A DNA stretch of 55,602 nt from positions 1 to 55,602 of IMG/VR virus record IMGVR_UViG_2923286960_000003. One strand, given 5' to 3'. Below, piece after piece: positions 1 to 17,355 of the stretch. The stretch is from a virus. Its lineage: Duplodnaviria; Heunggongvirae; Uroviricota; Caudoviricetes. Position 1 is the first letter of the stretch. Each line of letters opens with the position of its first letter. The notes beneath the pieces were generated by a model that did no database searches, was not told where the DNA came from, and worked only from the letters and a program-made list of their open reading frames with translations. Made by a program: the position numbers and the translations under genes.

Positions 1-1131
1 TCAAATGACCAGTTTTTTCCATTCCTTACCGCGTGCGTCGTTGTAAATATCGGTCATTTTTTGATTCGAATGGCCTAGCAAAATTTTGGTATCAACCCCC
101 TGCTCTCTGAACAATCGCTCTGATAAAGATCTCTGCTCATGGAAAGAGGGTGGGGTGCCATTAGCACGCCAGTTGTAATCCACAGAATCCCGGGCTTTTT
201 TAAATGCAACGGTTAATGTTGCTGGCTTAACCATCCCGCCGCGCTTAGCTGTCCCTTTCGCGTGATGGTGGTGCAATAGCCACGGACTAAGAACGCAATC
301 GCGGCAGGATGACACTACATCATCCAGGGTGAGATTTAATTTATCGCAACGCAGAGCCAGAGGGATGGCAATCCGGGTTCCTGTTTTTTGCTGTTCGACA
401 TGAAGATAACCATCCCGGATATCCGAAAATTGCATTTTGCAAATATCTGAAAGGCGCTGGCCTGTCATCAGTGCCAGCAGCATACCGCGCTGTAAAAAGT
501 AACCATTCTTTTCCGCTGCGTTATAAATCATCATCCACTCATCAAAAGTCAGTCGCTGTCTTGATATCCGCACCTGCGGTTTTTTTGCTGATTCTGCAGG
601 GTTAAAGCCTGGCGGGACATCGCCCGTTTGCTGAGCTTCCCGGAAAACATCGATCAGTACTTTCCTGAAAATTTGTCCCATTCTGTTATGTCCTCTGGCC
701 TTGTACTCTTCCAGTACTGATACCACATCTTTTACGGTTATGGCATCTAACGGTCTGGTGCCAAAACGTTCATCAAATACCCTGAGAGGGGCCGCTTTCT
801 GTTTCAGCGTGTTGAGTTTGATCTCGCCGTTTTCATATCTTTCCTGTTGAATTTTTCTGTAATTATTCAGAAAAATGGTAACGGTTGATGAACCGCCGGT
901 ATCACTAATAATTTTCTCCTGCAGACTGAGCATTTGTTCCATTTGCTGCCGGGCAAGACGGCTGTTCGCTTCTGCTGCAATAGTTTCTGCCAGTTTCTGG
1001 TCAATACTGCCGAGACCGTGATTTTTGCCTGTTATGGGATGCCTGTAACGCCAGTAAACTTTGTTATTTCTTTTGTCAAAATACGGAGATAATCCCGGAA
1101 CATCGGTTTTATATTTTCGCGGGCGCGCCAT
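1..1131 (-). CDS. int: phage integrase (tyrosine recombinase)
   Basis: 376-aa ORF with tyrosine-recombinase-like C-terminal region (R...H...Y spacing, LGHSNQKMTDIY); overlaps a small xis-like ORF upstream; sits at prophage edge. Confidence 0.85.
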   Translation of the reverse strand: MARPRKYKTDVPGLSPYFDKRNNKVYWRYRHPITGKNHGLGSIDQKLAETIAAEANSRLARQQMEQMLSLQEKIISDTGGSSTVTIFLNNYRKIQQERYENGEIKLNTLKQKAAPLRVFDERFGTRPLDAITVKDVVSVLEEYKARGHNRMGQIFRKVLIDVFREAQQTGDVPPGFNPAESAKKPQVRISRQRLTFDEWMMIYNAAEKNGYFLQRGMLLALMTGQRLSDICKMQFSDIRDGYLHVEQQKTGTRIAIPLALRCDKLNLTLDDVVSSCRDCVLSPWLLHHHHAKGTAKRGGMVKPATLTVAFKKARDSVDYNWRANGTPPSFHEQRSLSERLFREQGVDTKILLGHSNQKMTDIYNDARGKEWKKLVI

Positions 1132-1357
1132 CTTCCAGTATCCTCTTCAAAGCAGGGTGATCTGTGGCGATCACCTCCGGCTTGTTTACCATTCCGACAA
1201 AGCGAGCTTGCGGATCCACTCGCCAGCGTCTTCCAACTTTTTTGGGGAGAGGAAATATCATTCCGGCTTTAGCGTATTTACTTAACGTACTCGGAGTAGG
1301 GACCGGTTCACTGAATTCCTCTTTTGCCCACTCAGTGAGCAGAATAAGTCTTGCCAT
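1109..1357 (-). CDS. xis: excisionase-like small DNA-binding protein
   Basis: 82-aa basic ORF overlapping int start by 23 nt, the position and size typical of lambdoid Xis. Confidence 0.6.
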   Translation of the reverse strand: MARLILLTEWAKEEFSEPVPTPSTLSKYAKAGMIFPLPKKVGRRWRVDPQARFVGMVNKPEVIATDHPALKRILEDGAPAKI

Positions 1358-1421
1358 GAGCGTCGTTCGCTAATCATGGTCGCCGCCACTATAGCTGGTG
1401 GGCAACGACCGGGGTTGAACA

Positions 1422-3914
1422 TTAAAAATCAGCCTGATTTGGGATCAGTTTTTGCCAGATAGCTGAAACGTATTTTGCCTGGTAACGGGCGTCATCAAGT
1501 GCATTATGGCGCTCACCTTCGAATGGAATAGCCGTTCTGGCATCGAAGTCTATGGCTTTCCCCAGCTCAACGATTGTGCGTACATCGCGATCGTTGTAGT
1601 AACGCCACGGGCAGGGGATCCCCTGCCGTTCGTATGAACGGCGCAAAATCGTGTTGTCGAAGTTGGCTCCATTTCCCCAAACCTGAACAAAAAATTCACC
1701 GGAGTTTTCGTCGATAAATTCCCGCAATTGTAACAGTGCATCATCTAACGGGATTTCATCGGTCATAATGGCAGATTGCGCTTCGCGTGATTGCTTAAGC
1801 CACCATTTAATGGTGTCCCGATCAATGACTCCGCCAGCAGTTTCCAGATCGATAGTCTTACTAAATTCCGGTCCCATATCTCCGGTTTGCGGATCGAAAA
1901 ATATTGCACCTATTGAGATGATCGGGGCATCAGGATTTTTTCCCATGGTTTCAAGGTCGATCATTAGATGGTCACACGTCCTGCTGGTGGATGTGATTTC
2001 TTGATGACCGTTCACCTTAATTGAGTGATCTGCCGTCTCGCCAGTTTCATTATCGCTATCGTGATGCTGATTGCCGCCAGTGTTCTCCTTGTGTGGATGT
2101 TCAGCGCCTTCCATTTCCTCCGGATCATCTTCCTGAACTTCAGGCTGATACTCTTCATCGAATGTTTCCTGGTATGTTGCGTCGCCCATTACCGCGCCAC
2201 AATCAGGGCAGTTGCCGCCGCCGGTCTGACCGCAGGCGGTGCAGACTTTTTCCACTTCCTGTTGCGCCACTGATTCAGGCTGTTTCGTTTCTGGCTCGTT
2301 TTGTAACGCATTTGGGCTGTTTTGTAACGCATTTGGGCTGTTTTGTTCCGCTTTCTGGTCGTTCTGTTCCGTTTCTTGCTGGTTCTGGTTCACAGAATCG
2401 CGGGTCTGGTTCCCCTTAACCCATTTCGGATCATTCGGGTCGCTAATCCCTTCAACAAATTCACCACGTGATACTGCAAGCAGTTCATCGGCGTCAGGCT
2501 GGCTGATATTGGCTGCCTGCATAATTTTGTTTACTTCGTCAGCGGTAACTTTTACTGACCCTGGTTGTGCGGTCGTGTCAGATGCACCAGTATTTTGTTG
2601 TGAACCTGAGTATGTACCGTTTTTGCGGGCGAAATATTCTTCTTTCGTGATTTCAGTAGCCCCAGCAGACAGCGCCTTATCCAGACCAGAAAGTTTGTTT
2701 GCGCGACCGTATTTTTCGCCATCCTTGTCGGTGAAGAGGAAGTAGAACGGCCCCTCACGTTCTACAGATGGTTCGACTTCCACTTTGCATTCGGTTTTTT
2801 CGTTGTCCGGAATTGCCGTTTCCACTGCATCAGTTTCTGGTACTGGCGACGAGAGAGTATCAGTTGCGCTCTGATTTGTTCCTTCATCTTCAAACACGCC
2901 CTTTGTAGTCAGGTATTCAGTAATGTATTTGTTCAGTGCCACAGGGTCTTTGTGAATGTCGATCGGACGTTCACGGACAAGGCCAAAAATAGTCTGGCGG
3001 TCGTAGCGAAGGGCATCAGGCTGTTTGCGCATTGATGCCGAGATACGCTTCCAGTCTTCGCGGTCGTTGTCGATAACTTCATTTTTTGCCCAGCGATGGA
3101 TGCTGCCGTCAATGTTTCCGGCATCCACATCACCAGGCCAGAGAGCGTAGGCCAGTTCGTCATCCAGTGTTTTCCATGTCTGCTTGTATTCGCGATGAAT
3201 GGCAGCAATGACCGGGTTGATTTTTCCTGTTGAATTTTCAGTGTGCTGTTGATTGGCTCTGGCGCGGGCGAGATCAACAACAGACGTGTATTTTCCGGCT
3301 TCCTTGCGTTCACCTTCGCGACGTTTTTTCCAGATGCGCATCTCTGCCTGAATTTCGGGCCATTTGGCACCAGGCTTACATTTATGCTTAACCCACCCGA
3401 TGGCATGCAGCTTAAGCTCCGGATACATGGCGTTAACTTCTGGCATTTTCATTAACGCTTCAACGATATGTCCGTCGAATGTTGCCATGTCTTCCTGCAA
3501 CAGTTCCTGCGCGCTAATCACCATATCAACGGTGATGTTTTCACATGTGTCGAACTTAACCATGACAGCGTTCTGTACTTCAGGGGCCAGCTTGTCAAAA
3601 GTGACGTTCATCGGATCTGATTCAGTCTCAACCGGGACAAAGGAAGCAGACGCCTCATCCCAGCGGTTTTCCTGCATATATTCAGCATCCCAGGAATCTA
3701 GGGCAGGGCGGGGTATACCGGGTTTATCCTCGCAGACAAGAAATTTATAAGCGCAGTCCTGAGCAGCCGGATAATGTTCCAGGAATTGCCAGTGAAATTT
3801 TGCGCGGGCGCGACGTTCATCACCGGCTTCAATGGCAGTGGCTACAGCGACGGCACCTTCTTCCTTTATTGCCTGTTCGTCCGGAATGGCGGCGCAAATA
3901 AAGACTTTACTCAT
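1422..3914 (-). CDS. large early protein with C-terminal DnaQ-like 3'-5' exonuclease domain (DEDDh)
   Basis: 830 aa; C-terminal DLETMG...H..NALDDA motifs; central CxxC...CxxC zinc-ribbon-like segment; low-complexity Q/N/E-rich linker. Confidence 0.7.
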   Translation of the reverse strand: MSKVFICAAIPDEQAIKEEGAVAVATAIEAGDERRARAKFHWQFLEHYPAAQDCAYKFLVCEDKPGIPRPALDSWDAEYMQENRWDEASASFVPVETESDPMNVTFDKLAPEVQNAVMVKFDTCENITVDMVISAQELLQEDMATFDGHIVEALMKMPEVNAMYPELKLHAIGWVKHKCKPGAKWPEIQAEMRIWKKRREGERKEAGKYTSVVDLARARANQQHTENSTGKINPVIAAIHREYKQTWKTLDDELAYALWPGDVDAGNIDGSIHRWAKNEVIDNDREDWKRISASMRKQPDALRYDRQTIFGLVRERPIDIHKDPVALNKYITEYLTTKGVFEDEGTNQSATDTLSSPVPETDAVETAIPDNEKTECKVEVEPSVEREGPFYFLFTDKDGEKYGRANKLSGLDKALSAGATEITKEEYFARKNGTYSGSQQNTGASDTTAQPGSVKVTADEVNKIMQAANISQPDADELLAVSRGEFVEGISDPNDPKWVKGNQTRDSVNQNQQETEQNDQKAEQNSPNALQNSPNALQNEPETKQPESVAQQEVEKVCTACGQTGGGNCPDCGAVMGDATYQETFDEEYQPEVQEDDPEEMEGAEHPHKENTGGNQHHDSDNETGETADHSIKVNGHQEITSTSRTCDHLMIDLETMGKNPDAPIISIGAIFFDPQTGDMGPEFSKTIDLETAGGVIDRDTIKWWLKQSREAQSAIMTDEIPLDDALLQLREFIDENSGEFFVQVWGNGANFDNTILRRSYERQGIPCPWRYYNDRDVRTIVELGKAIDFDARTAIPFEGERHNALDDARYQAKYVSAIWQKLIPNQADF
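2298..2339. repeat. 2 x 21-bp perfect tandem repeat (gttttgtaacgcatttgggct) inside exonuclease gene
   Basis: direct read; encodes NSPNALQ NSPNALQ in the minus-strand protein. Confidence 0.8.
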
Positions 3915-3993
3915 TTTGTTTTACCTCATTACAGATTTAAGGGTGAACAAATCCCTGCCATTGCTGGCATATAAAAATGAAACTGGATATTAA

Positions 3994-4197
3994 TTACGGC
4001 GCTGTTTTTAATCCTGCCGGGATTTCGTTATTGTCCATGTGAATAACTTTATCGACCGGATAACAGTTGCCGGGAATTTTCTGTTCCGCTGCGGCAGCCA
4101 TGCATTCTTTCATTGAGTTGTACATGCCGGTGATTGCATCAAGCGACTCACCAGTATTGAGATGTACAGTCAGAATGAGTACGAATAATGTGTTCAT
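3994..4197 (-). CDS. small hypothetical protein with hydrophobic N-terminus
   Basis: 67-aa ORF directly downstream of dicB homolog; GGAGAG RBS; position matches ydfD slot of Qin-type prophages, identity not verified. Confidence 0.35.
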   Translation of the reverse strand: MNTLFVLILTVHLNTGESLDAITGMYNSMKECMAAAAEQKIPGNCYPVDKVIHMDNNEIPAGLKTAP

Positions 4198-4382
4198 CGC
4201 CACTCTCCGAAAATACCGAGTTTAAGAAGGGCAATTCTGGAGAGTATGGAATTGTCATTCAGCAGGTAGGGTTCATATTTTCTCATATTGATTGCATCCT
4301 CGGTGAAATCCCTGTTACTGAGCAGAACACCAATATTAAAGCACCCGTCAGACGTATTAACGTTTGGTAGTGACGTTTCCAT
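4194..4382 (-). CDS. dicB: DicB-like cell division inhibitor
   Basis: 62 aa; LPNVNTSDGCFNIGVLLSN..FTEDAINMRK matches my recollection of K-12 DicB (LPNVNTSEGCFEIGV...FTEDAINKRK). Confidence 0.75.
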   Translation of the reverse strand: METSLPNVNTSDGCFNIGVLLSNRDFTEDAINMRKYEPYLLNDNSILSRIALLKLGIFGEWR

Positions 4383-4392
4383 TATCGCGTCC

Positions 4393-4950
4393 TCAACAAT
4401 GAATTTTTAGCAATTGCTCCACAGTCATATTTTTAATTGCGCTCCGGTTTACAAGAGTCCATCCTTGTTTCTCCAGATAAAACCGGAAGGTATCCAGGGT
4501 GCAGACCATTGCGTCGTCAGGAACGGTTTCAGTGAATTTGATATTGCCGTGTTCGTCGAGACGGATAACCAGGGTGCGTCCGTCCCCGTGAATCATTTTG
4601 TCGGGAGACGGGGCGTTATTCTGGCGCAGTTCTGCTTCCATGCGGTCGAACTCAGCAATGTATGCCTCTTTAAATGCAGCGGCTTTTTTGCCAGTGAAGC
4701 CCATCACCAGGAAAACGAAGCCGTTTTTGGTGATTTGGTACATTGGGAGTTTGCGCCCGGTTGAGTCGGTGTATTCGCTTGACACAAAATTGTGCTCAGT
4801 GAATTTTGCTGAACAGTCCAGATTGCGAATTTTATCCAACACTCGTTCGTGGCGTTTGCCAAAGAACTCGGCGATCGCAACAGACGTAGTGACAGCGCGA
4901 CCATTTTCGATGGTTACGTCAGGGTGAGAAAGGGTAAGGATAGTAGCCAT
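4393..4950 (-). CDS. Rha family phage regulatory protein
   Basis: 185 aa from internal ATG (MATILTLSHPDV...); SVAIAEFFGKRHERVLDKIRNL motif typical of Phage_pRha; ORF-track upstream extension to 5247 judged non-coding. Confidence 0.65.
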   Translation of the reverse strand: MATILTLSHPDVTIENGRAVTTSVAIAEFFGKRHERVLDKIRNLDCSAKFTEHNFVSSEYTDSTGRKLPMYQITKNGFVFLVMGFTGKKAAAFKEAYIAEFDRMEAELRQNNAPSPDKMIHGDGRTLVIRLDEHGNIKFTETVPDDAMVCTLDTFRFYLEKQGWTLVNRSAIKNMTVEQLLKIHC

Positions 4951-5430
4951 GATGGCAGCCTCCGCGATGAATTTGATTAACTCACCACCGAGGTTTTCCA
5001 CGACCATAAGGGTGGTGAGACGTACAGGGGTGGAAATACCGGTCATCACGGAACCCGGCCAGCCTTGCGGCTGCCCTGCACGCCCCACCATAATGCGAAT
5101 GTGGCTGTGCTTAACGCATAAAAAAACCGCCTGAGCGCGGTTATGCGCCGTGAATGATTTCGGGTTTCCACGCCCGGCACCCGTTTTATGAGGTGCAGGT
5201 GCACTATAATTCCACCCGTTCTGGTTTTCAATAGCTACATTCAACATTTTCTCTACCTTTCATCACCGAAGTGAACTTTGTTGATGCGGTGCCTGGTGCC
5301 TCCAGGTGACGTTAACCAGTTAACAATTAACGTCGGATACAGAGCATTCCCGTTACGCCCGTAAAAGACCGCTTGTTTTAACTGTTCCGCGTGCGCTCAG
5401 CCGCATTCACCGCATCACAAAATTCACTTT

Positions 5431-5488
5431 AAAAACGGCGGCAGAGCAGTCACGGAGTAAAACTGATACCGCCAAACGTCACCAGAAA
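5431..5488 (-). ncRNA. dicF: DicF small regulatory RNA
   Basis: minus-strand sequence TTTCTGGTGACGTTTGGCGGTATCAGTTTTACTCCGTGACTGCTCTGCCGCC followed by T-run; matches remembered DicF with GGCGG/CCGCC terminator stem. Confidence 0.85.
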
Positions 5489-5822
5489 ATTGATAACAGA
5501 GGGCGTTGCAGCGGGGTTGTCACTTAAGCGTATGGTCAACCTGACAACCCGGTGTCCTCAACGGGGAAGGAATAACCCCGCCATACTTACCGCCGCGCCA
5601 TTTCGCGGATTGCCACAACCGGAAGCGCACGGTCGACGAAAATTTAACGACAGGCTATCTATGAACCAGCTACCTCGCCGAGCGCTTTCGCGTTATGGTC
5701 TGACTTTTCAGGGAAATATCCTTTCAGTAAACTGTCAGTGCCGGATGCTCACCCGTGTCCGGCGCACGCACTCCACCTCACCCGTGGAGAACTCCTTAAT
5801 CACCAACCCTCAGGAGGGTGAA

Positions 5823-6098
5823 ATGTCGACTGAAAATGATGAAATCATTAACTCCCTGATACGCCAGATTAATAATTTTGATAAAGCATTGCAGCATGCT
5901 GCGGCGCGTAGTGATATAACTCTTTTAGCAATTTCATTTCTTGCATCTGTTATGGATAAAAATGAAGTCGTACGACAGAGTCTTGTTGATTATATCGACT
6001 CGCTTCAACCCGGCACTTTCAATCATGAGAGCTTCAATCATGAGAAAGAGCATGTTAAGTCTGTAATTAATTCTCTTATTTTGAATCAAAAGAATTAA
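5823..6098 (+). CDS. hypothetical protein (91 aa), AT-rich
   Basis: strong RBS (caggagggtgaaATG); convergent with the early-left operon; contains FNHESFNHE tandem repeat. Confidence 0.35.
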   Translation: MSTENDEIINSLIRQINNFDKALQHAAARSDITLLAISFLASVMDKNEVVRQSLVDYIDSLQPGTFNHESFNHEKEHVKSVINSLILNQKN

Positions 6099-6396
6099 TG
6101 CTTTTTGTTGCAAAGTAATTTTCAAGGGGTTCTATTCGAATCCCTTTCTTTTTCATTAACAAGCCAAACCCCTTATCAATGATGTCCATTAGATCCAGGA
6201 AGTATTTTTCATGTAAATCCTGGTTATCAGAGAGCTGCTTCTCTTCGTACAGACCGATAAAGGCACGACGCACGTTACCGGATATAGTATCGATGGTTTC
6301 TTTTTCTACGGTACTCAGGTCAAGAGTCGCCAGTTGGGAACGAACTATATTCGCTGCCATTTCCTGGAATGGCATTGGTAAATCTTTAAATTCCAT
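6076..6396 (-). CDS. hypothetical protein (106 aa)
   Basis: ORF with GAGG RBS between ydfC-like gene and DicF; no recognisable motif. Confidence 0.4.
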   Translation of the reverse strand: MEFKDLPMPFQEMAANIVRSQLATLDLSTVEKETIDTISGNVRRAFIGLYEEKQLSDNQDLHEKYFLDLMDIIDKGFGLLMKKKGIRIEPLENYFATKSINSFDSK

Positions 6397-6418
6397 TATT
6401 AGCCTCGTTGGTTAGCTA

Positions 6419-6637
6419 TTAACGTGGGTATGTAACCATTCTGGCAATGCTTAATGCCGCTGCTTTTTCCAGCCTGGTGATATCCTGCTCCAGAGCGGAC
6501 AGATTTTCAGCCTGCTTAGTCCTGGCTTCATTGGCCCATTTCAGATCCTGCACTGCATTAATTTTCTGGCGCATCCACTCATAAAGTTCATCATCGGTAT
6601 AGTCTGGCGCGATGATGACGGGTTCTCGTTTCTGCAT
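6419..6637 (-). CDS. YdfC-like small protein
   Basis: 72 aa, GAGGA RBS, third small ORF of the ydfA-B-C-like series upstream of DicF as in Qin prophage; identity from synteny and size. Confidence 0.5.
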   Translation of the reverse strand: MQKREPVIIAPDYTDDELYEWMRQKINAVQDLKWANEARTKQAENLSALEQDITRLEKAAALSIARMVTYPR

Positions 6638-6666
6638 ACTGATTCCTCGCGGTGCTGTTTCGCTTA

Positions 6667-6795
6667 TCAGCCGTTAGATTTTCCCGAACTGGAAAGCGCC
6701 TGTTTAAATTCACTGAAGCTGAGAGCTTCTTCGCCTTCGGCAAGACCATCGAAGTATTCTTCGTAAGCCTTTTCCATGATTGTGTCGAAATCCAT
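6667..6795 (-). CDS. YdfB-like small protein (42 aa)
   Basis: hand-translated MDFDTIMEKAYEEYFDGLAEGEEALSFSEFKQALSSSGKSNG; start overlaps ydfA-like stop (coupled); not in ORF track because under 60 aa. Confidence 0.5.
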   Translation of the reverse strand: MDFDTIMEKAYEEYFDGLAEGEEALSFSEFKQALSSSGKSNG

Positions 6796-6796
6796 A

Positions 6797-6952
6797 TCAC
6801 TCACCTGAGTTTCTTTCCAGCCAGCGACGGGCACCATTTTCGGTTTTAAACGTTTTGCTTTTGGTATACGTCATCGCGGTGAATGTGCCGTCCTGGTTGG
6901 GAAACACGCCGTACACCAGAGATTCGTTGTTGCCAAGCTCGATAGTATCCAT
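6797..6952 (-). CDS. YdfA-like small protein (51 aa)
   Basis: hand-translated MDTIELGNNESLVYGVFPNQDGTFTAMTYTKSKTFKTENGARRWLERNSGE; first gene of leftward operon. Confidence 0.5.
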   Translation of the reverse strand: MDTIELGNNESLVYGVFPNQDGTFTAMTYTKSKTFKTENGARRWLERNSGE

Positions 6953-7148
6953 GCTGACCTCATTTCCCCTTAACGCCGGGTGGCGGAACTAAAACCTACA
7001 GCGCCGTGCTGTTCTTGATAGAAATATTAGTAACGCGGATATTTTAAGTCAACAGTATGGCGTATGATATTTTTGATTTGGTAACTATGTAAATGTTTTT
7101 TCAAGGGAAAAATATTAGTTATACAGCTGATTTGCAGAAGTTATGGCA

Positions 7149-7179
7149 CAAAAAAACCGACTAAGACGTCGGTTTTTTT
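7149..7179. terminator. bidirectional rho-independent terminator
   Basis: aaaaaaaccgac-taaga-cgtcggttttttt: GC stem flanked by A-run and T-run; lies between repressor gene end and early-left operon. Confidence 0.55.
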
Positions 7180-7205
7180 GTTGTGGATGGGGTAGTGAGC
7201 GGTGG

Positions 7206-7667
7206 CTACTGGTTACGTTTCTTTAGTGCCAGCATGTTCTCGAAGGCTTCCTCGTAGAGCTTGTTTAGTCCACGTAGCTGGTTAAGGAGTTTGGCTTTTT
7301 CTGACGCAGGTAGAATCTCGAAGAGGTTAAGTAACTCTGCCTGTTCTTCATTGACCAGCCTCCATCCTTTGCCTGAAAAGTTATCATCATAAGTATCTGA
7401 TGATCTTACATAATTCATTAAGTCTTTAAGGTCTTCTCGAATGTCCTCTGGTTTTACCTTTAACAGAGCCGCAAATTTTAGCGCAGCGTCGGTATTTACC
7501 GGTATCTTGCCGTTCAGATACTGGCTAACGGTGCCTTGAGATTCGAATCCCAACAACTCAGCCGCCAGCTCTTGAGTCAGCTTCAGCTCTTTTTTTCTTG
7601 CATTCCATGCGGCTTTTAAATTCTTGCTCGCTTCTGGAGTTGCAATCACTTCGCGTGTTTTTTTCAT
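7206..7667 (-). CDS. DicA/CI-like prophage repressor (HTH XRE N-terminus, no S24 peptidase)
   Basis: 153 aa; HTH LTQELAAELLGFESQGTVSQYLNG; C-terminal ELLNLFEILPASEKAKLL resembles remembered DicA C-terminus; divergent from cro-like gene. Confidence 0.7.
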   Translation of the reverse strand: MKKTREVIATPEASKNLKAAWNARKKELKLTQELAAELLGFESQGTVSQYLNGKIPVNTDAALKFAALLKVKPEDIREDLKDLMNYVRSSDTYDDNFSGKGWRLVNEEQAELLNLFEILPASEKAKLLNQLRGLNKLYEEAFENMLALKKRNQ

Positions 7668-7715
7668 ACATAGAGTTTATTTGTTTTACCAATATTATCA
7701 AAGATAGTCTGGCTA

Positions 7716-7744
7716 TTGATCTTTAAAATTAGCGGGGCTAATAT
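7716..7744 (+). promoter_or_regulatory. PR-like sigma70 promoter for cro-like gene
   Basis: TTGATC (7716-7721), 17-bp spacer, TAATAT (7739-7744), about 30 nt upstream of cro-like ATG; TTGATC recurs 30 bp downstream (possible operator half-sites). Confidence 0.45.
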
Positions 7745-7774
7745 TTGATCGAGGCATAACGTAGAAGGTTGGCT

Positions 7775-8048
7775 ATGAACTTAAGAGACTATTTAAAAGA
7801 GAAACATATCACCCAGCTACAGTTTGGGAAGCTAACGGGTTTATCTCAGGTGCATGTAAGTCGAGTGCTGGGGGCTATGAAAGATTCAGCCCTGAAAAAG
7901 CATTACGTGTTGCTGAAGTAACGAATTTCGAGGTTCCACCTCATGAACTCCGGCCTGATATTTACCCGAATCCAACCGACGGCTTACCTGTTGGATTCAA
8001 GGCTAACACACCAAATGCATCGGAGTTGATTCATGAAAATCAGGCATG
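7775..8048 (+). pseudogene. Cro/YdaS-like HTH regulator with apparent 1-nt frameshift
   Basis: ATG 7775 ORF stops at 7921 after 48 aa; the adjacent frame continues as GYERFSPEKALRVAEVTNFEVPPHELRPDIYPNPTDG... to 8048; frames join at a G5 run (7870-7874). Confidence 0.45.
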
Positions 8049-8458
8049 AGCACATCCGCATGGCGATGAATGCCTGGGCGCATCCGGACGGTGAAAAAGT
8101 TCCGGCAGCTGAAATAACCCGGGCTTATTTTGAGCTTGGTATGACGTTCCCGGAATTATATGACGACAGCCATCCGGAAGCCCTGGCTCGCAATACCCAG
8201 AAAATTTTCCGCTGGGTGGAGAAAGACACTCCTGATGCGGTTAAAAAAATTCAGGCGTTGTTACCAGCGATCGAAAAAGCAATGCCGCCTCTGCTGGTGG
8301 CCCGAATGCGCAGCCACAGTTCAGCTTATTTTCGGGAGCTGGTGGAGACGCGGGAACGACTGGTGAGAGACGCTGATGATTTTGTCGCAGTGGCGATCGC
8401 TGGTTTCAACCAGATGAATCGTGGTGGCCCTGCAGGAAATATTGTGGCTGTGCATTGA
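8033..8458 (+). CDS. YdaT-like protein (CII-position regulator/toxin family)
   Basis: 141 aa beginning MKIRHEHI, ending VAVH; resembles Rac YdaT from memory; follows cro-like gene. Confidence 0.6.
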   Translation: MKIRHEHIRMAMNAWAHPDGEKVPAAEITRAYFELGMTFPELYDDSHPEALARNTQKIFRWVEKDTPDAVKKIQALLPAIEKAMPPLLVARMRSHSSAYFRELVETRERLVRDADDFVAVAIAGFNQMNRGGPAGNIVAVH

Positions 8459-8529
8459 CTCGCAATATTCATACCGGATCACTTCCGGCAATTTGTGAGT
8501 AAAAAGATTCGGTATCAGAAGAGGTGAGT

Positions 8530-9570
8530 ATGGCTAACGCCTGGCTCAGATTATGGCATGACATGCCAAATGACCCTAAGTGGCGAACAATTGCCAGGGT
8601 GTCAGGGCAGCCAATTGCAACAGTGATGGCAGTGTATATCCACCTTCTGGTGAGCGCGTCACGAAATGTCACGACATGTCACGGCGTGTCACTACGTGGT
8701 CACATTGATGTCACGACGGAAGATTTAGCAAGTGCGCTTGATGTGACGGAAGAAGTAATTGATTCAATTTTACAGGCAATGCAGGGGCGGGTACTTGATG
8801 GAGATTTAATCACCGGATGGGAAAAACGCCAGGTACTGAAAGAGGACAATGGCAACGTTTCACAAACCGCGAAATCCCCGGCAGAGCGCAAGAGAGCGCA
8901 GCGCGAGAGGGAAAAATTACGAAAACAGAATGAGGGGTGTCACGACGAGTCACGCATATGTCACGACATGTCACGACGAGTCACGACAGATAAAGATACA
9001 GATAAAGAATTAAACCCCACACATAACGCGCACGTGCGCGAGAGTGCTCCGACCAGTGAGTCGAGTGGTACGCCGTTGCAGGCAGCAGAACCTGCATCCC
9101 TGGATGGACTGAGCGAACCCATCGGGAAATTTCCGATGGTCGATGACTGGCATCCGTCGCCGGATTTTCGACGACGGGCTGCGTTGTGGGGGATGGCTTT
9201 GCCGGAGCCGGAATTTACACCTGCTGAACTTGCCGCTTTCCGGGACTACTGGGCAGCGGAGGGGAAAGTTTTCACGCAGGTTCAGTGGGAGCAGAAATTC
9301 GCCCGTCACGTAAATCACGTCAGGGCGCAGGTTAAGCCAGTCAGCAAGGGGGTAAACCATGCAGCAGCACCAGGTGGCACCGCATCACGGGCAGTTCAGG
9401 AAATTCGGGCAGCACGTGAGCAGTGGGAACGTGAAAACGGATTTATCAGCGACGGAAACGGTCTGGAAGCTGTGGGAACTCATGGGGGAGGTTTATTCGA
9501 ACCGCTGGACCCAGAAGAACGGGGCCGCACCTTCGAAGCTCTGGATTGCACAGATTGGCGCGATGACTGA
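8530..9570 (+). CDS. replication initiation protein (replisome-organizer-like N-terminus)
   Basis: N-terminal WLRLWHDMPNDPKWRTIARVSG...HLLVSAS pattern typical of phage replication initiators; two phased GTCAC iteron arrays inside the gene; RBS agaggtga. Confidence 0.55.
   Translation: MANAWLRLWHDMPNDPKWRTIARVSGQPIATVMAVYIHLLVSASRNVTTCHGVSLRGHIDVTTEDLASALDVTEEVIDSILQAMQGRVLDGDLITGWEKRQVLKEDNGNVSQTAKSPAERKRAQREREKLRKQNEGCHDESRICHDMSRRVTTDKDTDKELNPTHNAHVRESAPTSESSGTPLQAAEPASLDGLSEPIGKFPMVDDWHPSPDFRRRAALWGMALPEPEFTPAELAAFRDYWAAEGKVFTQVQWEQKFARHVNHVRAQVKPVSKGVNHAAAPGGTASRAVQEIRAAREQWERENGFISDGNGLEAVGTHGGGLFEPLDPEERGRTFEALDCTDWRDD
8658..8714. repeat. iteron-like array 1: six GTCAC(G) repeats at 10-11 bp phasing
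   Basis: GTCAC at 8658, 8668, 8678, 8688, 8699, 8710. Confidence 0.6.
8949..9030. repeat. iteron-like array 2 (five ATGTCACGAC-type repeats) plus adjacent AT-rich tract; candidate replication origin
   Basis: GTCAC at 8949, 8959, 8970, 8980, 8990, followed by gataaagatacagataaagaattaaa. Confidence 0.55.
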
Positions 9571-10024
9571 GCAGCAAATCCGACAGGTCTGCCGCCAGTG
9601 CATGGACCGCTGCCGGGCGGGTGAAACATGGCCTCCGGACCTGGCTGAGTTTGTGGCGCTGATTTCAGAAAGCGGGGCCAATCCATTTGGCCTGACGGTG
9701 GATGCTGTGATGGAGGAGTACCGCCGCTGGCGTGATGAGTCCTGGCGATATGACGGAAGCGACAAATATCCGTGGCCTCAGCCTGTGCTGTACCACATCT
9801 GCCTCGAAATGCGTACCAGAGGGATTGAGCGCCAGATGACGCAGGGTGAGTTAAAACGACTTGCGGAACGGCAACTGACGAAATGGGCAAAGCATGTTGG
9901 TAACGGGATGAGTGTTCCGCCAGTGCGACGACAACTGGAAGGGGCGAAACACCCGCAAGGGCCAACGCCAATTGAACGGCTGAAACAGGAATACGAACGC
10001 CGGAAGGCAGCTGGTTTTATTTGA
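9563..10024 (+). CDS. hypothetical replication-associated protein
   Basis: ATG overlaps initiator stop (ATGACTGA coupling); 153 aa; no Walker motif; longer ORF from 9359 is possible. Confidence 0.4.
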   Translation: MTEQQIRQVCRQCMDRCRAGETWPPDLAEFVALISESGANPFGLTVDAVMEEYRRWRDESWRYDGSDKYPWPQPVLYHICLEMRTRGIERQMTQGELKRLAERQLTKWAKHVGNGMSVPPVRRQLEGAKHPQGPTPIERLKQEYERRKAAGFI

Positions 10025-10057
10025 ATCTGAGAAACGATTTTGTCGGAGGAAATTTTA

Positions 10058-10828
10058 ATGGAAACCGTATTTGACGCACTGAAAGCAATGGGAAAAGCCA
10101 CATCGGTAGAACTGGCCGCGCGACTTGATATCAGTCGTGAAGAGGTTCTCAACGAGCTGTGGGAACTCAAAAGAAATGGCGTCGTTGATAAAACTGGTCA
10201 CACCTGGTTTCTGGCTGGCGAAGGTGAATCCCGGGTAACCGAAGAGCGGCCAGTAAAATCTGAAGCACAGGATATGCTGACCGGGGAGGTCGAACAAAAA
10301 GTTACCGCAGACATGATGATTGAGTTTATCGGTCAGGATGGTGCTAAAACGTGTGAGGAACTGGCGGGTAAGTTCGGCGTCAGTACTCGCAAGGTTGCCT
10401 CCACGCTGGCGGTGGTAACCGCAACGGGGCGGCTGGCACGCGTTAATCAGAACGATAAATTTCGTTACTGCATGCCGGGCGATAATTTACCAGCAGAGCC
10501 GAAAGCCGCGCTGGTAACGGAAAGTGATGGTAAGGCCTTTCCTCAGCCAGCAGGTGCTGCGTTACCAGTCCGGGAAGCCGCAACACAGGAAGAAATTAAA
10601 ACAGAAACTGTGGCGGACATTGTGCAGCCGTTGCCATCGTTTACCGAAACGCAAGCAGATGAGCTGATTTTTCCGTCCCTTCGCAGGGCAAACCTGGCGC
10701 TGCGCAGGGCGAAAAGTGATGTTCAGAAGTGGGAGCGAGTCTGCGCCGCGCTGCGGGAGGTGAACAAGCACCGGGATATTGTTCGACAGATTACTGATTC
10801 TTCCCGCCGTGTTGTATCGGAAAAGTGA
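10058..10828 (+). CDS. hypothetical protein with two winged-helix-like repeats (DUF1627-like)
   Basis: GGAGGA RBS 8 nt before ATG 10058; two similar segments ([26 protein letters not shown] and [23 protein letters not shown]). Confidence 0.5.
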
Positions 10829-10843
10829 TTGCCGGAGGCGCTT

Positions 10844-11236
10844 ATGGCAAAAGTATTTACACCAGAAGAGCGGGAAGAAGTGAAGGCGCGCATTGTGGAA
10901 TTCGTGCGCCTGAGCGGACGAGAAACTTTTCGACAACTGGCAGATAAAACGGGTGTCAGTAAGACCGCTATTCGTCGTTTATCTGGTGCGCTTGCGGCCA
11001 GTGGTGATGTCTGGCTCTCTGGTTGCGGGGTATTTCCATCAGAGCAGGCGTATCGCGTATGGCGTAAGACACCGGAGAAGGCTGCTGACCCGACACTGAT
11101 TCGAAAGTTACCTGACGGAGAAATACGTCGTTACAACAGACGGCAGAACATAATTTGTCGTGAGTGCCGCCAGAGCGAAGTTATGCAGCGTGTGCTGGCG
11201 TTCTATCGGGGAAACTTTCAGGAGGTGATGGAGTGA
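10844..11236 (+). CDS. hypothetical protein
   Basis: ORF with RBS ggaggcgcttATG; function unknown. Confidence 0.45.
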   Translation: MAKVFTPEEREEVKARIVEFVRLSGRETFRQLADKTGVSKTAIRRLSGALAASGDVWLSGCGVFPSEQAYRVWRKTPEKAADPTLIRKLPDGEIRRYNRRQNIICRECRQSEVMQRVLAFYRGNFQEVME

Positions 11237-11529
11237 GGGTCAGAGTTTATATTGCCGGTCCAATGACGGGATATGAAAATTTCAACCGTGAGGCGTTTCA
11301 CAAGGCGGAAGAGGAACTGAAACGGGAAGGGCATACCGTCTTAAACCCGGCAGTACTTCCGGACGGGCTGACACAGCCGCACTACATGGATATTTGCATG
11401 GCAATGATTCGTTGTGTGGATGCGATTTACATGCTGAATGGCTGGCAGCGGTCAGCGGGCGCTAAGGCAGAGCTGGCACTGGCGGAGAAACTGGGGCATG
11501 CAGTGATTTATCAGGAGGTGGCTCAATGA
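11233..11529 (+). CDS. DUF4406-like protein (nucleoside 2-deoxyribosyltransferase-like fold)
   Basis: GTG start overlapping upstream stop (GTGA); VYIAGPMTGYENFN motif. Confidence 0.5.
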   Translation: MRVRVYIAGPMTGYENFNREAFHKAEEELKREGHTVLNPAVLPDGLTQPHYMDICMAMIRCVDAIYMLNGWQRSAGAKAELALAEKLGHAVIYQEVAQ

Positions 11530-11987
11530 GAGAGGTTAACTATGAGGCGCTTCGTGAGGCAGCACAAAACTATCAGTCGACGCTGGCGTGGTATCAGGCT
11601 ATCCCGGACAGCCCAAATGCTGAACGGGATTGTGATGCGGCTCTTGCTGCGTTTAAGCGTCACATCCGTCATCGGGAAGCGGATATTATCGCTGATTTGC
11701 TGGATGGACTGGAAGAAGCAAAATCACAACTCAAAGAGCAGCGTGAGTATTACGAAGGCGTTATCTCTGATGGGAGCAAGCGTATTGCTGAACTGGAAGC
11801 GCGGGAAGTTCAATTACCGACTCGCTACGACCTTCGATATGGACACCCGATAAATGCAGATGAGCGACATGTCATGATACCTAAAGAAAATGGCAGTTGG
11901 CTTTACCTGATTGACTTAGAACACGCATTACGCGTCGCTGGCATTCGCATCAAAGGAGAGGAGCATGGAAATAAAACCAGAGGATGA
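11526..11987 (+). CDS. hypothetical coiled-coil protein (Ea22-like)
   Basis: 153 aa; translationally coupled; central coiled-coil-like segment. Confidence 0.4.
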   Translation: MREVNYEALREAAQNYQSTLAWYQAIPDSPNAERDCDAALAAFKRHIRHREADIIADLLDGLEEAKSQLKEQREYYEGVISDGSKRIAELEAREVQLPTRYDLRYGHPINADERHVMIPKENGSWLYLIDLEHALRVAGIRIKGEEHGNKTRG

Positions 11988-12321
11988 GTTAAGCAATATC
12001 GTTTTATTTCCGGTAAAAGAGGATGACCCTCGTAATCAGGTTAATTTTCTTTATGAGCCATCGGAAAGACCATATTGTCATCACGCCTCTGTTCGGGTTG
12101 ACGAAAAAGAGCGTCAGGTCCGCTGTAAAATCTGCGGTGCAGTTGTGGAGCCGTTTGACTGGATGCTCTCTGTGGCGAAAAGAGAAACCAGACTGGCAGA
12201 TGATGTAAGGCTATTGCGCCAGGAGGAACAGGAAAGGCGGAAAAATATAGAAAAGTTAATTCAGATTGAGCGTAACGCGAAAGCGCGGATATGCAGGGCG
12301 ACAAAATCCAGAACTGAATAA
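11965..12321 (+). CDS. hypothetical protein with zinc-ribbon-like CxxH...CxxC
   Basis: 118 aa ORF; PYCHH...CKICG. Confidence 0.4.
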   Translation: MEIKPEDELSNIVLFPVKEDDPRNQVNFLYEPSERPYCHHASVRVDEKERQVRCKICGAVVEPFDWMLSVAKRETRLADDVRLLRQEEQERRKNIEKLIQIERNAKARICRATKSRTE

Positions 12322-12416
12322 TTAAATTTAGCACTGTAAATAAAATCAAATCCTTAACCGGAGGGATTTCTGCACCCTCAGAACATCAGGAGGCCGTCCG
12401 AAAGGGCGGTAGTGAA

Positions 12417-12599
12417 ATGCGAAAATTCAAAATAATTATTGAAACGGGAATAGCCGGTGGAGATTTCGAGGATGAATTCGAAGTGGATGATGATGCAACA
12501 CCAGATGAAATACAGGATGAAGCTAAAGATATTTTCTTTAACTACTGCAATTACTCATACCACGAAATAAAAGACGAAGAGGAAGAACAAAATGGCTGA
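12417..12599 (+). CDS. small acidic hypothetical protein
   Basis: 60 aa, highly acidic. Confidence 0.35.
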   Translation: MRKFKIIIETGIAGGDFEDEFEVDDDATPDEIQDEAKDIFFNYCNYSYHEIKDEEEEQNG

Positions 12600-12768
12600 T
12601 TTTGGTTCAACTAAATATAACGCCAGTTTTGAAGAATGGCATGAACTGTTAATGGATTATGCAGAGTTACGCGGTGGAAGTGCCGCTGATGCTGAAGCAT
12701 GGCGTGATGATTATGAAGCAGGGAAAACACCGGTCGAAGCATATTGTGATGAGTGGGGCGATGAATGA
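12592..12768 (+). CDS. small hypothetical protein (58 aa)
   Basis: hand-found ORF MADFGSTKYNASFEEWHELLMDYAELRGG...; stop overlaps next ATG (ATGA). Confidence 0.3.
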   Translation: MADFGSTKYNASFEEWHELLMDYAELRGGSAADAEAWRDDYEAGKTPVEAYCDEWGDE

Positions 12769-13124
12769 GCGAGATTAATTATCAGGAAGGGCATGAAAAG
12801 GTAGGGCAGGCAAAACCAGTGGCATGGCGATATCGCTACGTGAAAAAAGGCGTTACAGACTTTCAGGGGAAGCAGTGGGTTGGTGACTGGAAATATGTCC
12901 CGACAAAAGAGGATTGTAACGACAGACCAAACTATGAAATTCAGGCGTTATTCACGGCCCCGCCAGCTTCGGTGACATCAGAAGGACTGGTTAAAGCTGT
13001 GCGCTTTTATGAACAGGTACGGCGTGAGGATCCGCCAGTTGAAACCGGAGCATGGAAAGACGCTATTGACTGGGTACTCAAGGAGGCCTGCCTGGTTGTA
13101 AACACGGGCATCAAAGGAGGCTGA
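12765..13124 (+). CDS. hypothetical protein
   Basis: 119 aa, coupled to neighbours. Confidence 0.45.
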   Translation: MSEINYQEGHEKVGQAKPVAWRYRYVKKGVTDFQGKQWVGDWKYVPTKEDCNDRPNYEIQALFTAPPASVTSEGLVKAVRFYEQVRREDPPVETGAWKDAIDWVLKEACLVVNTGIKGG

Positions 13125-13340
13125 ATGGGTATTGCCGCAAGTTATACCATGCATCTCTATTGTGATTGCCGCCAGTGTACGGATGGCAAATATCAGTCGC
13201 CAGATTTTGGTGAGTATATCGGTACGTCATGGGCTGGCTGTGCAAAAGAGGCACGTAAAGATGGGTGGCGAATAAGTGCCGACAAAACGCGTGCTTTTGC
13301 GCCAGGGCATAAAATTTTGAGGAGCAACAAAGGAGAGTGA
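13125..13340 (+). CDS. small Cys-rich hypothetical protein
   Basis: 71 aa; CDCRQC...C. Confidence 0.4.
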   Translation: MGIAASYTMHLYCDCRQCTDGKYQSPDFGEYIGTSWAGCAKEARKDGWRISADKTRAFAPGHKILRSNKGE

Positions 13341-13341
13341 T

Positions 13342-13560
13342 GTGCCTACATTATTCAGAAAAGAATATCCGCGAAAAAGTAGAGCGACAGAATTTTTGTT
13401 TCTCATTCTGTTTATCGTGTTGATGATACCGATATCCCCGTTAATTCTGGTATGGGGAATCGGAAAAATAATTGAGCCAGTTATTGAATTGTATAACGAC
13501 GTGGTATGGGCTCCGTTCAACACACTGCACAATAAAATTAATCCGTATAAGGAAAACTGA
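13342..13560 (+). CDS. small membrane protein
   Basis: GTG start; hydrophobic stretch FLFLILFIVLMIPISPLILVWGIG. Confidence 0.35.
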   Translation: MPTLFRKEYPRKSRATEFLFLILFIVLMIPISPLILVWGIGKIIEPVIELYNDVVWAPFNTLHNKINPYKEN

Positions 13561-13561
13561 T

Positions 13562-13825
13562 ATGGCAACTTTGACAAAAAAAGAACAGGCATGGTTGAAC
13601 GAATTACAGGACGTTCTTGATCGCTGTCCATCACCGAAAAAAATTGGTTTTTACACCATTGGCGATAAAAGCATTTACCTGTATGACCTGCGCCGCATGG
13701 ATGAAATCATGGAGGCTCTTGATAATCGTTCGTCAATGGATTGGTGTGTTGCTGTCCATGATATGAATGCAGGGTTTGATGAAAAGATTTTGTTCCCCTC
13801 ATCAGTTGAAAGCACTGCGGGTTAA
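13562..13825 (+). CDS. hypothetical protein (87 aa)
   Basis: internal ATG of listed ORF 13472-13825 chosen (MATLTKKEQ); tight packing. Confidence 0.4.
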   Translation: MATLTKKEQAWLNELQDVLDRCPSPKKIGFYTIGDKSIYLYDLRRMDEIMEALDNRSSMDWCVAVHDMNAGFDEKILFPSSVESTAG

Positions 13826-13835
13826 GGAGTAACAC

Positions 13836-14003
13836 ATGACCACTATTACCAAAGAACGTATTGAATTGTTCATTAAAAACCCGCTTGAAAACGGGCTTAC
13901 CCGTGGTGAACAAATGGAACTGGCACGGATTGCGCTGGCATCGCTGGAAGCAGAGCCGGTTGTGTTCTGGTTTGAAAAATATCAAGAAGGGGCTACGGCA
14001 TGA
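13836..14003 (+). CDS. small hypothetical protein (55 aa)
   Basis: RBS aaggagtaacacATG; stop overlaps next start. Confidence 0.35.
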
Positions 14004-14344
14004 CGACTTTTACCAGAGAGCAGTTAATAGCTCACGCAGAGGAGACTATTGAAGCACAGAGACTGTGCATACCGGGCACAATCGACCATGACATCATCCG
14101 CACATATAAGATGGATATTGCTGTTCTGGAAATCGCACTGGTATCGCTGGCAGCAGAGCCAGCCGGTAAATTGCATGAATACAAACCAGTGGGATATCAG
14201 CGTCTGGTCGATGAGTTAACCATGCTGGTAAAGCAGTTAACCTGGCAACTGAGGAAAGCGAAGCCAGACTGCAAATTACCGGATAAGGCGATGAGTTATC
14301 TGGAGCGGAACGGACTGATAAGCGTGGAGGATATTTTACGATGA
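14000..14344 (+). CDS. hypothetical protein
   Basis: 114 aa; ATGA overlap with upstream gene. Confidence 0.45.
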
Positions 14345-14635
14345 CCTGGCCTGAAGCATTAACAACGGTAGGAATTGCGATGGCGGTGGCGCTGGTGGTG
14401 TATTCGATTTGCCGCTGGGGATAAAAACGGTTTGCGGGAAAAGGAGAGTTAAGTAGAATTGCAGCGGGTGCTTGAGGCTATCTGTCTCAGGCATGAACAC
14501 CAAAAGGCAGATAGAGAAAAGCCCCAGTTAACATTACGCGTCCGGCAAGACGCTTAACATTAATCTGAGGCCATATCTATGCTCTACACACGTAGGTTAG
14601 CCTCTTACGTGCCGAAAGGCAAGGAGAAGCAGGCT

Positions 14636-14791
14636 ATGAAGCAGCAAAAGGCGATGCTAATCGCCCTGATCGTCATCTGTTTAACCGTCATTGTGACGGC
14701 ACTGGTAACGAGGAAAGACCTCTGCGAGGTACGAATCCGAACCGGCCAGACGGAGGTCGCTGTCTTCACAGCTTACGAACCTGAGGAGTAA
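14636..14791 (+). CDS. hokD: Hok/Gef family membrane toxin
   Basis: 51 aa MKQQKAMLIALIVICLTVIVTALVTRKDLCEVRIRTGQTEVAVFTAYEPEE matches my memory of HokD/RelF; strong RBS aaggagaag. Confidence 0.85.
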   Translation: MKQQKAMLIALIVICLTVIVTALVTRKDLCEVRIRTGQTEVAVFTAYEPEE

Positions 14792-14860
14792 GAGACCCGG
14801 CGGGGGAGTAATCTCCCGCCACCTCTGATGTGCCAGGCATCCTCAACGCACCCGCACTTA

Positions 14861-14880
14861 ACCCGCTTCGGCGGGTTTTT
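14861..14880 (+). terminator. rho-independent terminator after hok; left copy of 20-bp direct repeat
   Basis: acccgcttcggcgggttttt; identical 20-mer recurs at 16696-16715. Confidence 0.6.
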
Positions 14881-14892
14881 GCATTAGTCTGG

Positions 14893-14921
14893 TTGACAAA
14901 AATAGAAAAATGCGAAAATAT
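14893..14921 (+). promoter_or_regulatory. putative sigma70 promoter of the moron cassette
   Basis: consensus TTGACA (14893-14898), 17-bp spacer, AAATAT. Confidence 0.4.
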
Positions 14922-14956
14922 GTGGTTTACGAATTCTAAAAAAAGCGAAACTTGAA

Positions 14957-15607
14957 ATGAATGAAAATCAGTTAGCTCCTTGTTGGGAATTTCAACCTTA
15001 TCTTGCTGAAAACTATGTTCGCCACTTGTTGGCGGAGATCGCTAACGTACTTGAGCAGCTGTACTATCATAAGCACGCATTAGACAGCAACTGGTCTGAA
15101 GGTGTAAGGGCTTATGATTGGGTCAGAAATCATCTTATTCAAAATGAAGATGCAATTCCTGGCCTTGAGATGATTTCCAAGGGGTTGGACTATGTAGTTG
15201 CTTTAAATAAAGTTCCGCTACAATTTACCAAAGATTGCATTAATAACCCCAAAAAGAAACATCGTCTGCGTCGAAATAAAGTAGAGTATGAGCAGCTCTC
15301 ATTGTTTGGTGATGTTGAGGCTGAGCAAGATATTACATGGCGAGTCATAGCTGAGCCTTTTTTATCCGAAGAGGGCGATGGTGAATTAGAGTCCACACTG
15401 CCTCGTTGGGAGGTAGCTCTTGTTGGATTTAATACTTATGGTGCTCAGATTAGTATAGTTTCTCATCAATCTACAGCATCGATGCCGCTTATGCCTCTTG
15501 ATTATAACACACTCCCTGACGAAGCGGAGATTAATAAGGTGCCTCTTCGTCGGCGTACGAAGGATAAAGATTTGGATGTGAGCAGTGATGGAACATCAGG
15601 TGAATAA
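14957..15607 (+). CDS. hypothetical protein, cassette gene A (216 aa, no recognisable domain)
   Basis: AT-rich ORF; overlaps gene B start by about 20 nt; acidic C-terminal half. Confidence 0.6.
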   Translation: MNENQLAPCWEFQPYLAENYVRHLLAEIANVLEQLYYHKHALDSNWSEGVRAYDWVRNHLIQNEDAIPGLEMISKGLDYVVALNKVPLQFTKDCINNPKKKHRLRRNKVEYEQLSLFGDVEAEQDITWRVIAEPFLSEEGDGELESTLPRWEVALVGFNTYGAQISIVSHQSTASMPLMPLDYNTLPDEAEINKVPLRRRTKDKDLDVSSDGTSGE

Positions 15608-16691: not shown

Positions 16692-16695
16692 GTAT

Positions 16696-16715
16696 ACCCG
16701 CTTCGGCGGGTTTTT
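16696..16715 (+). terminator. rho-independent terminator; right copy of 20-bp direct repeat
   Basis: acccgcttcggcgggttttttgttttt. Confidence 0.6.
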
Positions 16716-16848
16716 TGTTTTTATTTTCAACGTGTTTGAAGTTTTGGACGGTGCCAGAATAGAATCAAAAATACTTAAGTAGCGCGCAGGGAGAAGAGGG
16801 ATGGACCCCGAACAGGGGGAGTGCTATTTATCTGGAAGGATTCTGTTG

Positions 16849-17022
16849 ATGAAAATCGAAGAATTACGTGAAATTTTTAGTGAAGATGGCCTCTATGCTG
16901 TGCGCGTTGAGAATGGGGGTATTACCTACACAGCGTTAATTCCTGATGATCATGTAGTGTTATCTGTTGAGGCATTCATTGAATACTTGGAAAGACTCGG
17001 TTTCAAGGTAGTTCGGGAATAA
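16849..17022 (+). CDS. small hypothetical protein (57 aa)
   Basis: ATG with GGAAGGA RBS; AT-rich. Confidence 0.3.
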   Translation: MKIEELREIFSEDGLYAVRVENGGITYTALIPDDHVVLSVEAFIEYLERLGFKVVRE

Positions 17023-17081
17023 GTTATAATACGTGAGCCAGCCTGAACAACTGGCAACCTGCAGCGCCATTGGAGATGACA

Positions 17082-17354
17082 ATGGCGCATAATTTCAAAT
17101 TTCGCAATTCTGATTCTGCCTTTGCCAGCAGGCACGGGTGGCGTTCTCACGCATTCAAATATGACTGGTATCAGCACGATCCCTGTACTGAAGAACAGGC
17201 CGAATGGCTGATTCATAACTACCGCAGACGTGGATATGAGTTTAGGAAAGCCCTCACCCTCGATTATCGTCACTGGATAATCTACGTCAGACTCCCTTAT
17301 TCCGAACGCCCACCGCGTCCGTCCCGCACATTCCAGCAACGCATCTGGAGGTAA
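17082..17354 (+). CDS. hypothetical protein (90 aa), Rem-position
   Basis: RBS ggagatgacaATG; sits between hok region and DUF968 gene. Confidence 0.4.
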   Translation: MAHNFKFRNSDSAFASRHGWRSHAFKYDWYQHDPCTEEQAEWLIHNYRRRGYEFRKALTLDYRHWIIYVRLPYSERPPRPSRTFQQRIWR

Positions 17355-17355
17355 C

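Follow-up and report, generated by a model that had tools for sequence, protein, structure and literature searches.

A probable one-nucleotide deletion in the cro-like ydaS gene of an otherwise complete-looking Escherichia coli lambdoid prophage

The split ydaS-type gene and its intact orthologs

The ydaS-type cro-like gene of the prophage described here has very probably been inactivated by a genuine, lineage-specific deletion of one nucleotide, which shortened a run of six guanines (G6) to five (G5). The analysed stretch of 55,602 nt (hereafter the window) carries a lambdoid prophage that is inserted next to ompW and otherwise looks complete, with integrase, excisionase, replication, antiterminator, lysis, terminase, portal, capsid and tail genes all annotated as intact. 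Of the essential-looking genes in the window, only ydaS, with its frameshift, was seen to be clearly disrupted.

The pseudogene occupies positions 7775 to 8049 of the plus strand and measures 275 nt, compared to 276 nt (91 codons) in the orthologs. In agreement with the initial annotation, the ATG at 7775 opens an ORF of only 48 codons, which stops at the TAA at 7919-7921. This remaining translatable ORF (7775-7921, plus strand) encodes MNLRDYLKEKHITQLQFGKLTGLSQVHVSRVLGAMKDSALKKHYVLLK, i.e. 33 native residues followed by 15 out-of-frame residues. The frame starting at 7777 is open before and through the G-run and reads ...GGYERFSPEKALRVAEVTNFEVPPHELRPDIYPNPTDGLPVGFKANTPNASELIHENQA up to its stop. 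The two frames indeed join at the GGGGG of 7870-7874 (plus strand), the site of the deletion, where the ancestral G6 encodes Gly33-Gly34 (GGG GGC). That the adjacent frame continues open was also right, but its end had been placed one base too early, as its TGA lies at 8047-8049 and its last base is 8049, not 8048. It overlaps the ydaT start codon (ATG at 8033), as proposed, by 17 nt. The stranded native-frame 3' part (7873-8049, plus strand) corresponds to ortholog codons 34-91 and is no longer translated. In the window sequence, no ATG, GTG or TTG was found in the downstream native frame before the TTG at 8026, and the ORF list of the window contains no ORF of at least 25 aa ending at 8049. 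Since TTG 8026 is the only start in its frame, the C-terminal half cannot be made alone, and re-initiation was ruled out. The PGAP annotation of strain B-2207 marks only 7930-8049, as a pseudogene 'transcriptional regulator, missing N-terminus'; this RefSeq label names the missing N-terminus only, while the actual lesion is a frameshift.

Aligned to the window at 99.3% DNA identity, the closest sister strain, NCTC86, differs by a sixth G in the run (G6) and by a single substitution, at 7936. NCTC86 has the gene as one uninterrupted ORF of 276 nt, whose 91-aa product is annotated as a 'YdaS family helix-turn-helix protein' (WP_001053425.1). Because the orthologs have G6, the lesion in the window is a 1-nt deletion (G6 to G5). 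The substitution, C for A at 7936 (plus strand), corresponds to T55P in the dead frame and is private to the lineage. Repairing the frame gives a 91-aa protein that differs only by T55P from one present on more than 1000 contigs in a public protein collection. A relative with only 65% protein identity is likewise 91 aa long, and its C-terminal half is almost the same. The split is therefore not a chance juxtaposition of ORFs, which bears out the earlier proposal of a gene divided by a 1-nt frameshift: the orthologs are single ORFs of 91 aa rather than about 48 aa, and conservation of the downstream frame is strong. A G4 version of the gene would read CTG GGG CTA TGA and stop immediately.

The nearest known counterpart, WP_001053425.1, occurs in NCTC86 and many other E. 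coli and shares its neighbours and prophage type with the window gene, differing in the tract (G6 against G5) and in T55P. The gene named 'dicC' in phage Rac-SA53 has the same neighbours in the same type of prophage and is an 82-aa variant with an earlier stop. In E. coli RM11911 (locus L028, 490-765), comparison with window 7775-8049 shows the Cro-like genes to be mosaic. Across the C-terminal half and the ydaT junction their DNA is almost the same, and the divergence lies in the N-terminal HTH half. The divergent HTH half suggests a different immunity specificity.

The assignment as a cro-like gene of the YdaS type is supported by ortholog annotation, an HTH_3 match, structural matches to Cro and its position. 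The repaired 91-aa protein matches Pfam HTH_3 with 29.2 bits (cut-off 23) over residues 3-51, while the 48-aa product, with 20.5 bits, falls below this cut-off. YdaS-family or Cro-superfamily HTH regulators are covered by Pfam PF15943 and COG4197; the repaired protein reaches 27.3 bits against PF15943 (YdaS_toxin; cut-off 30), and the RefSeq G6 ortholog is named YdaS family. Neither the Cro-like protein nor YdaT reached the threshold of any NCBIfam family. The best matches among solved structures are 8c7k/8co2, 'Phage antirepressor protein Cro' (E ~0.01), over residues 1-72 including the ELRP motif. The gene diverges from the prophage repressor and lies directly upstream of ydaT and replication genes, an order equal to the cI / cro / cII / O-P layout.

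As described in Jobling's letter (PMC5917428), YdaS and YdaT of Rac are regarded as the equivalents of Cro and CII. According to PMC8630535, YdaS of prophage CP-933P (E. coli O157:H7), the Cro analogue of the PaaR2/YdaS/YdaT switch, binds intergenic operators and represses a PRM-like promoter more than its own; with stop mutations in ydaS, the 'ydaST-on' population of this bistable switch disappears. Like the window protein, it is a small XRE-type HTH protein whose gene is oriented away from the prophage repressor and directly precedes ydaT and replication genes. In sequence, however, the two are only distantly related (E ~0.01). The CP-933P repressor is PaaR2, whereas that of the window is DicA-like, without embedded toxin-antitoxin genes, and the window gene is frameshifted, unlike ydaS of CP-933P.

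Rarity of the G5 allele and its place in the B-2207 lineage

A megablast search with positions 7700-8100 against 5,426 complete E. coli genomes returned one 401-nt match with 100% identity, in NZ_CP117959.1 (strain B-2207), and the other full-length matches listed all span 402 nt. An 86-nt probe with the G-run at its centre served to count alleles in RefSeq complete E. coli records. Only one of the 180 matching records, again B-2207, has the 86-nt G5 form; the remaining 179 have identities in the range that a single gap would produce, and all 59 listed among them span 87 nt (G6). The allele family is present in 179 of the 5,426 complete genomes. A G4-G7 pattern matched 10 metagenome and 50 IMG/VR contigs, of which 60/60 are G6 and 0/60 G5. 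Judged by these counts, G5 is a derived, rare state.

The initial annotation had left two options, a homopolymer sequencing error or genuine inactivation. Genuine inactivation is favoured, because the window, CP117959.1 and an assembly of run ERR2910149 agree on G5 yet differ elsewhere. Between the window and CP117959.1, four SNPs and two other homopolymers differ (15163, 23978, 51238, 54596, 54969 and 55081), the latter being T5 against T4 at 51238 and T8 against T11 at 54969. Because of the T4 at 51238, the tail-fibre gene is a 'frameshifted' pseudogene in CP117959.1, while the corresponding ORF (49031-51835, 934 aa) is intact in the window. The Logan assembly of ERR2910149 matches window positions 1-17921 (17,921 nt) with a single SNP (9503) and has the same G5.

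The three available assemblies of NCTC86 are all G6 at the tract, though mutually discordant at other homopolymers. As they come from different data, the G-tract is not intrinsically miscalled. Between the window and NCTC86 there are about four SNPs, three homopolymer length differences and an IS3 insertion. None of the RefSeq complete genomes equals the window exactly; the window is closest to B-2207, with some sites instead in common with NCTC86. Most simply, the G5 mutation would have been fixed in the B-2207 lineage once this had separated from NCTC86. The substitution at 7936 fits this history: T55 is invariant among the listed variants that extend to residue 55, and the repaired P55 protein is absent from a collection of 15 billion proteins in which the T55 version occurs on more than 1000 contigs. 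Such a private change in a dead frame, although one event only, is in line with drift following the inactivation.

That the strain is truly G6 and that an undercalled homopolymer produced G5 is unlikely, although several observations point that way. The lesion is a 1-nt homopolymer deletion, which is the classic type of long-read error, and B-2207 has often been sequenced by nanopore. Of seven small differences that separate the window from the best NCTC86 assembly, three concern the length of a homopolymer, the assemblies compared disagree at such runs (the portal gene is 'frameshifted' in two of three NCTC86 assemblies, as is the tail fibre in CP117959.1), and several other G5 carriers look error-prone. 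On the other hand, a pure sequencing error would have to recur in three non-identical sequences, in a window assembly that is right where CP117959.1 is broken, and at a tract read as G6 in every NCTC86 assembly. Most contigs encoding the 48-aa product are moreover short, as in short-read assemblies.

According to the literature, the ZymoBIOMICS D6331 standard includes five E. coli strains, B-2207 among them; the literature found on B-2207 concerns that membership only, with nothing on this prophage. The three G5 datasets of the lineage may stem from one widely distributed stock and hence be re-sequencings. With one shared stock, the mutation could be a culture-collection event. The practical value of the finding lies in annotation, and for users of NRRL B-2207 as a component of the D6331 gut standard.

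Some further differences within the lineage were recorded. Across 54500-55200 the window is identical to NCTC86 and not to CP117959.1. NCTC86 carries an IS3-family insertion in this prophage at about 14086 (loci L004, L016 and L017), which the window lacks. The 'frameshifted' portal gene in two of the three NCTC86 assemblies reflects two homopolymer differences, at window positions 33865 and 35787; since the third NCTC86 assembly and the window have neither, these are probably assembly errors in those two records. At two intergenic runs, G8 at 28601-28608 and T7 at 31144-31150, the window and B-2207 have an additional base relative to all three NCTC86 assemblies; these may represent further lineage-specific slippage events.

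Recurrence in other prophages and alternative readings of the G tract

The exact 48-aa product occurs on 24-29 contigs in NCBI, ENA and Logan, mostly contigs of 2-10 kb, and two single-substitution variants of it also exist in the public collection. Among the loci fetched, G5 lies on four ydaS nucleotide haplotypes, in prophages at three attachment sites: ompW (the window and loci L021-L024), yebY/copD (L018 and L019) and ttcA, the Rac site (L020). Abundant intact G6 counterparts exist for the three non-window G5 haplotypes, on more than 1000 (P0004), 566 (P0029) and 108 (P0030) contigs. Locus L022 shares the ompW site, but 37 changes in 12.6 kb separate it from the window. Because NCTC86, with G6, is far closer to the window than L022 is, parsimony indicates that the G5 of L022 would have arisen independently. 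The G7 (+1) product was found once and the G4 (-2) product never, counts that are softened by gene-calling bias, and the product of an A5-to-A4 frameshift was found once. Part of the recurrence may be artefactual, because some G5 carriers (L023, L024 and L026) contain numerous split genes and are not part of the RefSeq set.

As the tract lost one G in several unrelated prophage backgrounds, with at least three other ydaS haplotypes also hit, these data suggest that the G6 tract behaves as a mutational hot spot. A stronger form of this idea, in which selection in E. coli hosts has favoured the -1 deletion time and again, as a single step that locks an intact lambdoid prophage into lysogeny in a form of domestication, possibly revertible by a +1 change, is considered quite unlikely. 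The recurrence of an identical lesion is a small example of short homopolymers channelling prophage decay.

A reversible contingency locus, with the G tract as a phase-variable on/off switch of the lytic regulator, is exceedingly improbable. The recurrence of the G6-to-G5 change in different prophages and the excess of -1 over +1 products (24-29 contigs against one) would be in line with such a switch. However, OFF alleles are very rare, with 1/180 in RefSeq and 0/60 in metagenome and IMG/VR contigs, and T55P, located in the dead frame, points to an inactivation of long standing and not to a reversible one. The 65%-identical RM11911 allele reads V-A-T-G-R at the tract position, without a G-run, so the tract is not a conserved device. 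A tract of 6 nt is also shorter than known phase-variable tracts. Phase variation was rejected on the allele frequencies together with this divergent relative.

Very improbable, too, is that the G5 allele still yields the full-length protein by programmed -1 frameshifting or transcriptional slippage. In favour of recoding, a tRNA-Gly bound in the P site to GGG 7871-7873 can shift to 7870-7872 with perfect pairing (CUG GGG G), and an A-AAG-type shifty site (G AAA AAG, 7894-7900) lies 24 nt downstream in the shifted frame and would return the ribosome to the native frame. The two-frame split is nevertheless not conserved, since the gene is a single ORF in 179 of the 180 RefSeq records and in all 60 metagenome and IMG/VR relatives. 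A canonical X XXY YYZ heptamer is absent at the G-run, and the downstream RNA structure is not significant (fold of 7860-7960, z = -1.54; 12 of 200 shuffles were as good). A G5 run is too short for efficient slippage of RNA polymerase. Programmed frameshifting was rejected on the non-conserved arrangement and the lack of both RNA structure and canonical heptamer. Speculatively, spontaneous low-level -1 slippage on CUG-GGG-G might regenerate traces of wild-type protein, and slippage at G-AAA-AAG 7894-7900 might yield a protein of full length in which a patch of 9 residues is out of frame.

With these alternatives weighed, a genuine inactivating deletion remains the preferred explanation. The locus belongs to a known gene family and is a pseudogene of an ordinary type, caused by a homopolymer frameshift; it is no new kind of system. 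Homopolymer frameshift pseudogenes of decaying (domesticated) prophages likewise rest on a single-base indel in a short mononucleotide run, with one gene lost in a prophage that is otherwise complete; the sole extra feature here is that the same lesion recurs across several prophage backgrounds.

Predicted effect on the lysis-lysogeny switch

Replication slippage in the homopolymer is the most likely origin of the change from G6 to G5. In a single-sequence AlphaFold model of the intact protein, helices are predicted at residues 3-10, 14-21, 25-34 and 40-50 (pLDDT 73-83 for residues 1-50). The native frame is lost after Gly33, at the end of the predicted recognition helix, and the stop follows 15 codons on. 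According to this model, the 48-aa product keeps the predicted HTH helices 1-3 and lacks helix 4 and the '...EVTPHELRPDIYPNP...' C-terminal half. The lost C-terminal segment is the most conserved part among relatives.

By analogy with CP-933P YdaS and lambda Cro, the truncated protein would no longer act as a Cro-type antagonist of the repressor. Once derepression begins, the repressor would remain uncounteracted, and the bistable switch would lose its 'lytic' state. The prophage would then be biased or locked toward lysogeny, with impaired productive induction. We infer from this comparison that Cro-like function is lost, that the switch is biased to lysogeny and that induction is impaired. 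A prophage with this lesion in its Cro-like regulator is predicted to induce poorly. An effect on inducibility, which the initial annotation had raised, is plausible given the published work on YdaS and Cro. A similar situation is expected for cro-defective mutants of lambda: a CI/Cro-type bistable switch is again without its lytic-side regulator, repressor synthesis is not shut off and the lytic transition is poor (for the role of Cro, see PMC8630535). Lambda Cro has no sequence homology to the window protein, however, and unlike those mutants, the window lesion is a natural mutation in a resident prophage.

The divergent prophage repressor in the cI position (7206-7667, minus strand) has 153 aa, an HTH_3 domain and weak similarity to the DicA family. 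It is separated from ydaS by a 107-bp intergenic control region (7668-7774) with candidate operators and a promoter-like site on the repressor strand. Pattern matching located three operator-like half-palindromes 22 nt apart, at 7697-7705, 7719-7727 and 7741-7749. The related 9-nt elements ATCAAAGAT, ATCTTTAAA and ATATTTGAT within 7697-7749 are candidate OR-type operators. No LexA/S24-type autocleavage domain was detectable in the repressor, and a Rha/Ash-family regulator is encoded at 4393-5247 (minus strand), on the same side as the repressor. Given this missing domain and this neighbour, induction may proceed via an antirepressor rather than by RecA-mediated cleavage.

The CII-like ydaT gene (PF06254; 8033-8458, plus strand) is followed by DnaT-like and P-like replication genes at 8530-10024. 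It has its own GGAG at 8022-8025 and in the orthologs overlaps the ydaS stop by 17 nt. In the window, ydaT would keep its own ribosome-binding site and lose its translational overlap with ydaS. Since ribosomes now stop 112 nt upstream and the overlap is lost, ydaT expression may drop somewhat. The ydaT start is spanned by a YdaT-operator-like element, TTGATTcatgaaAATCAg (8026-8043, plus strand), with one mismatch from the consensus TTGATTN6AATCAA, as given in PMC9986795. It is the only such match in the window, but 21 of 100 shuffles also yield one, so that statistically the match by itself is weak. The element is conserved in four aligned alleles. As a candidate, TTGATTCATGAAAATCAG at 8026-8043 could be an autoregulatory or PRE-like site.

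Elsewhere in the prophage, a 781-nt inverted repeat, 99% complementary (50894-51674 and 53111-53891), brackets about 1.4 kb of tail-fibre and assembly genes. A truncated 'recombinase family protein' fragment lies near it, at about 53940-54120. The segment looks like a Pin/Gin-type invertible host-range segment with a degraded invertase.
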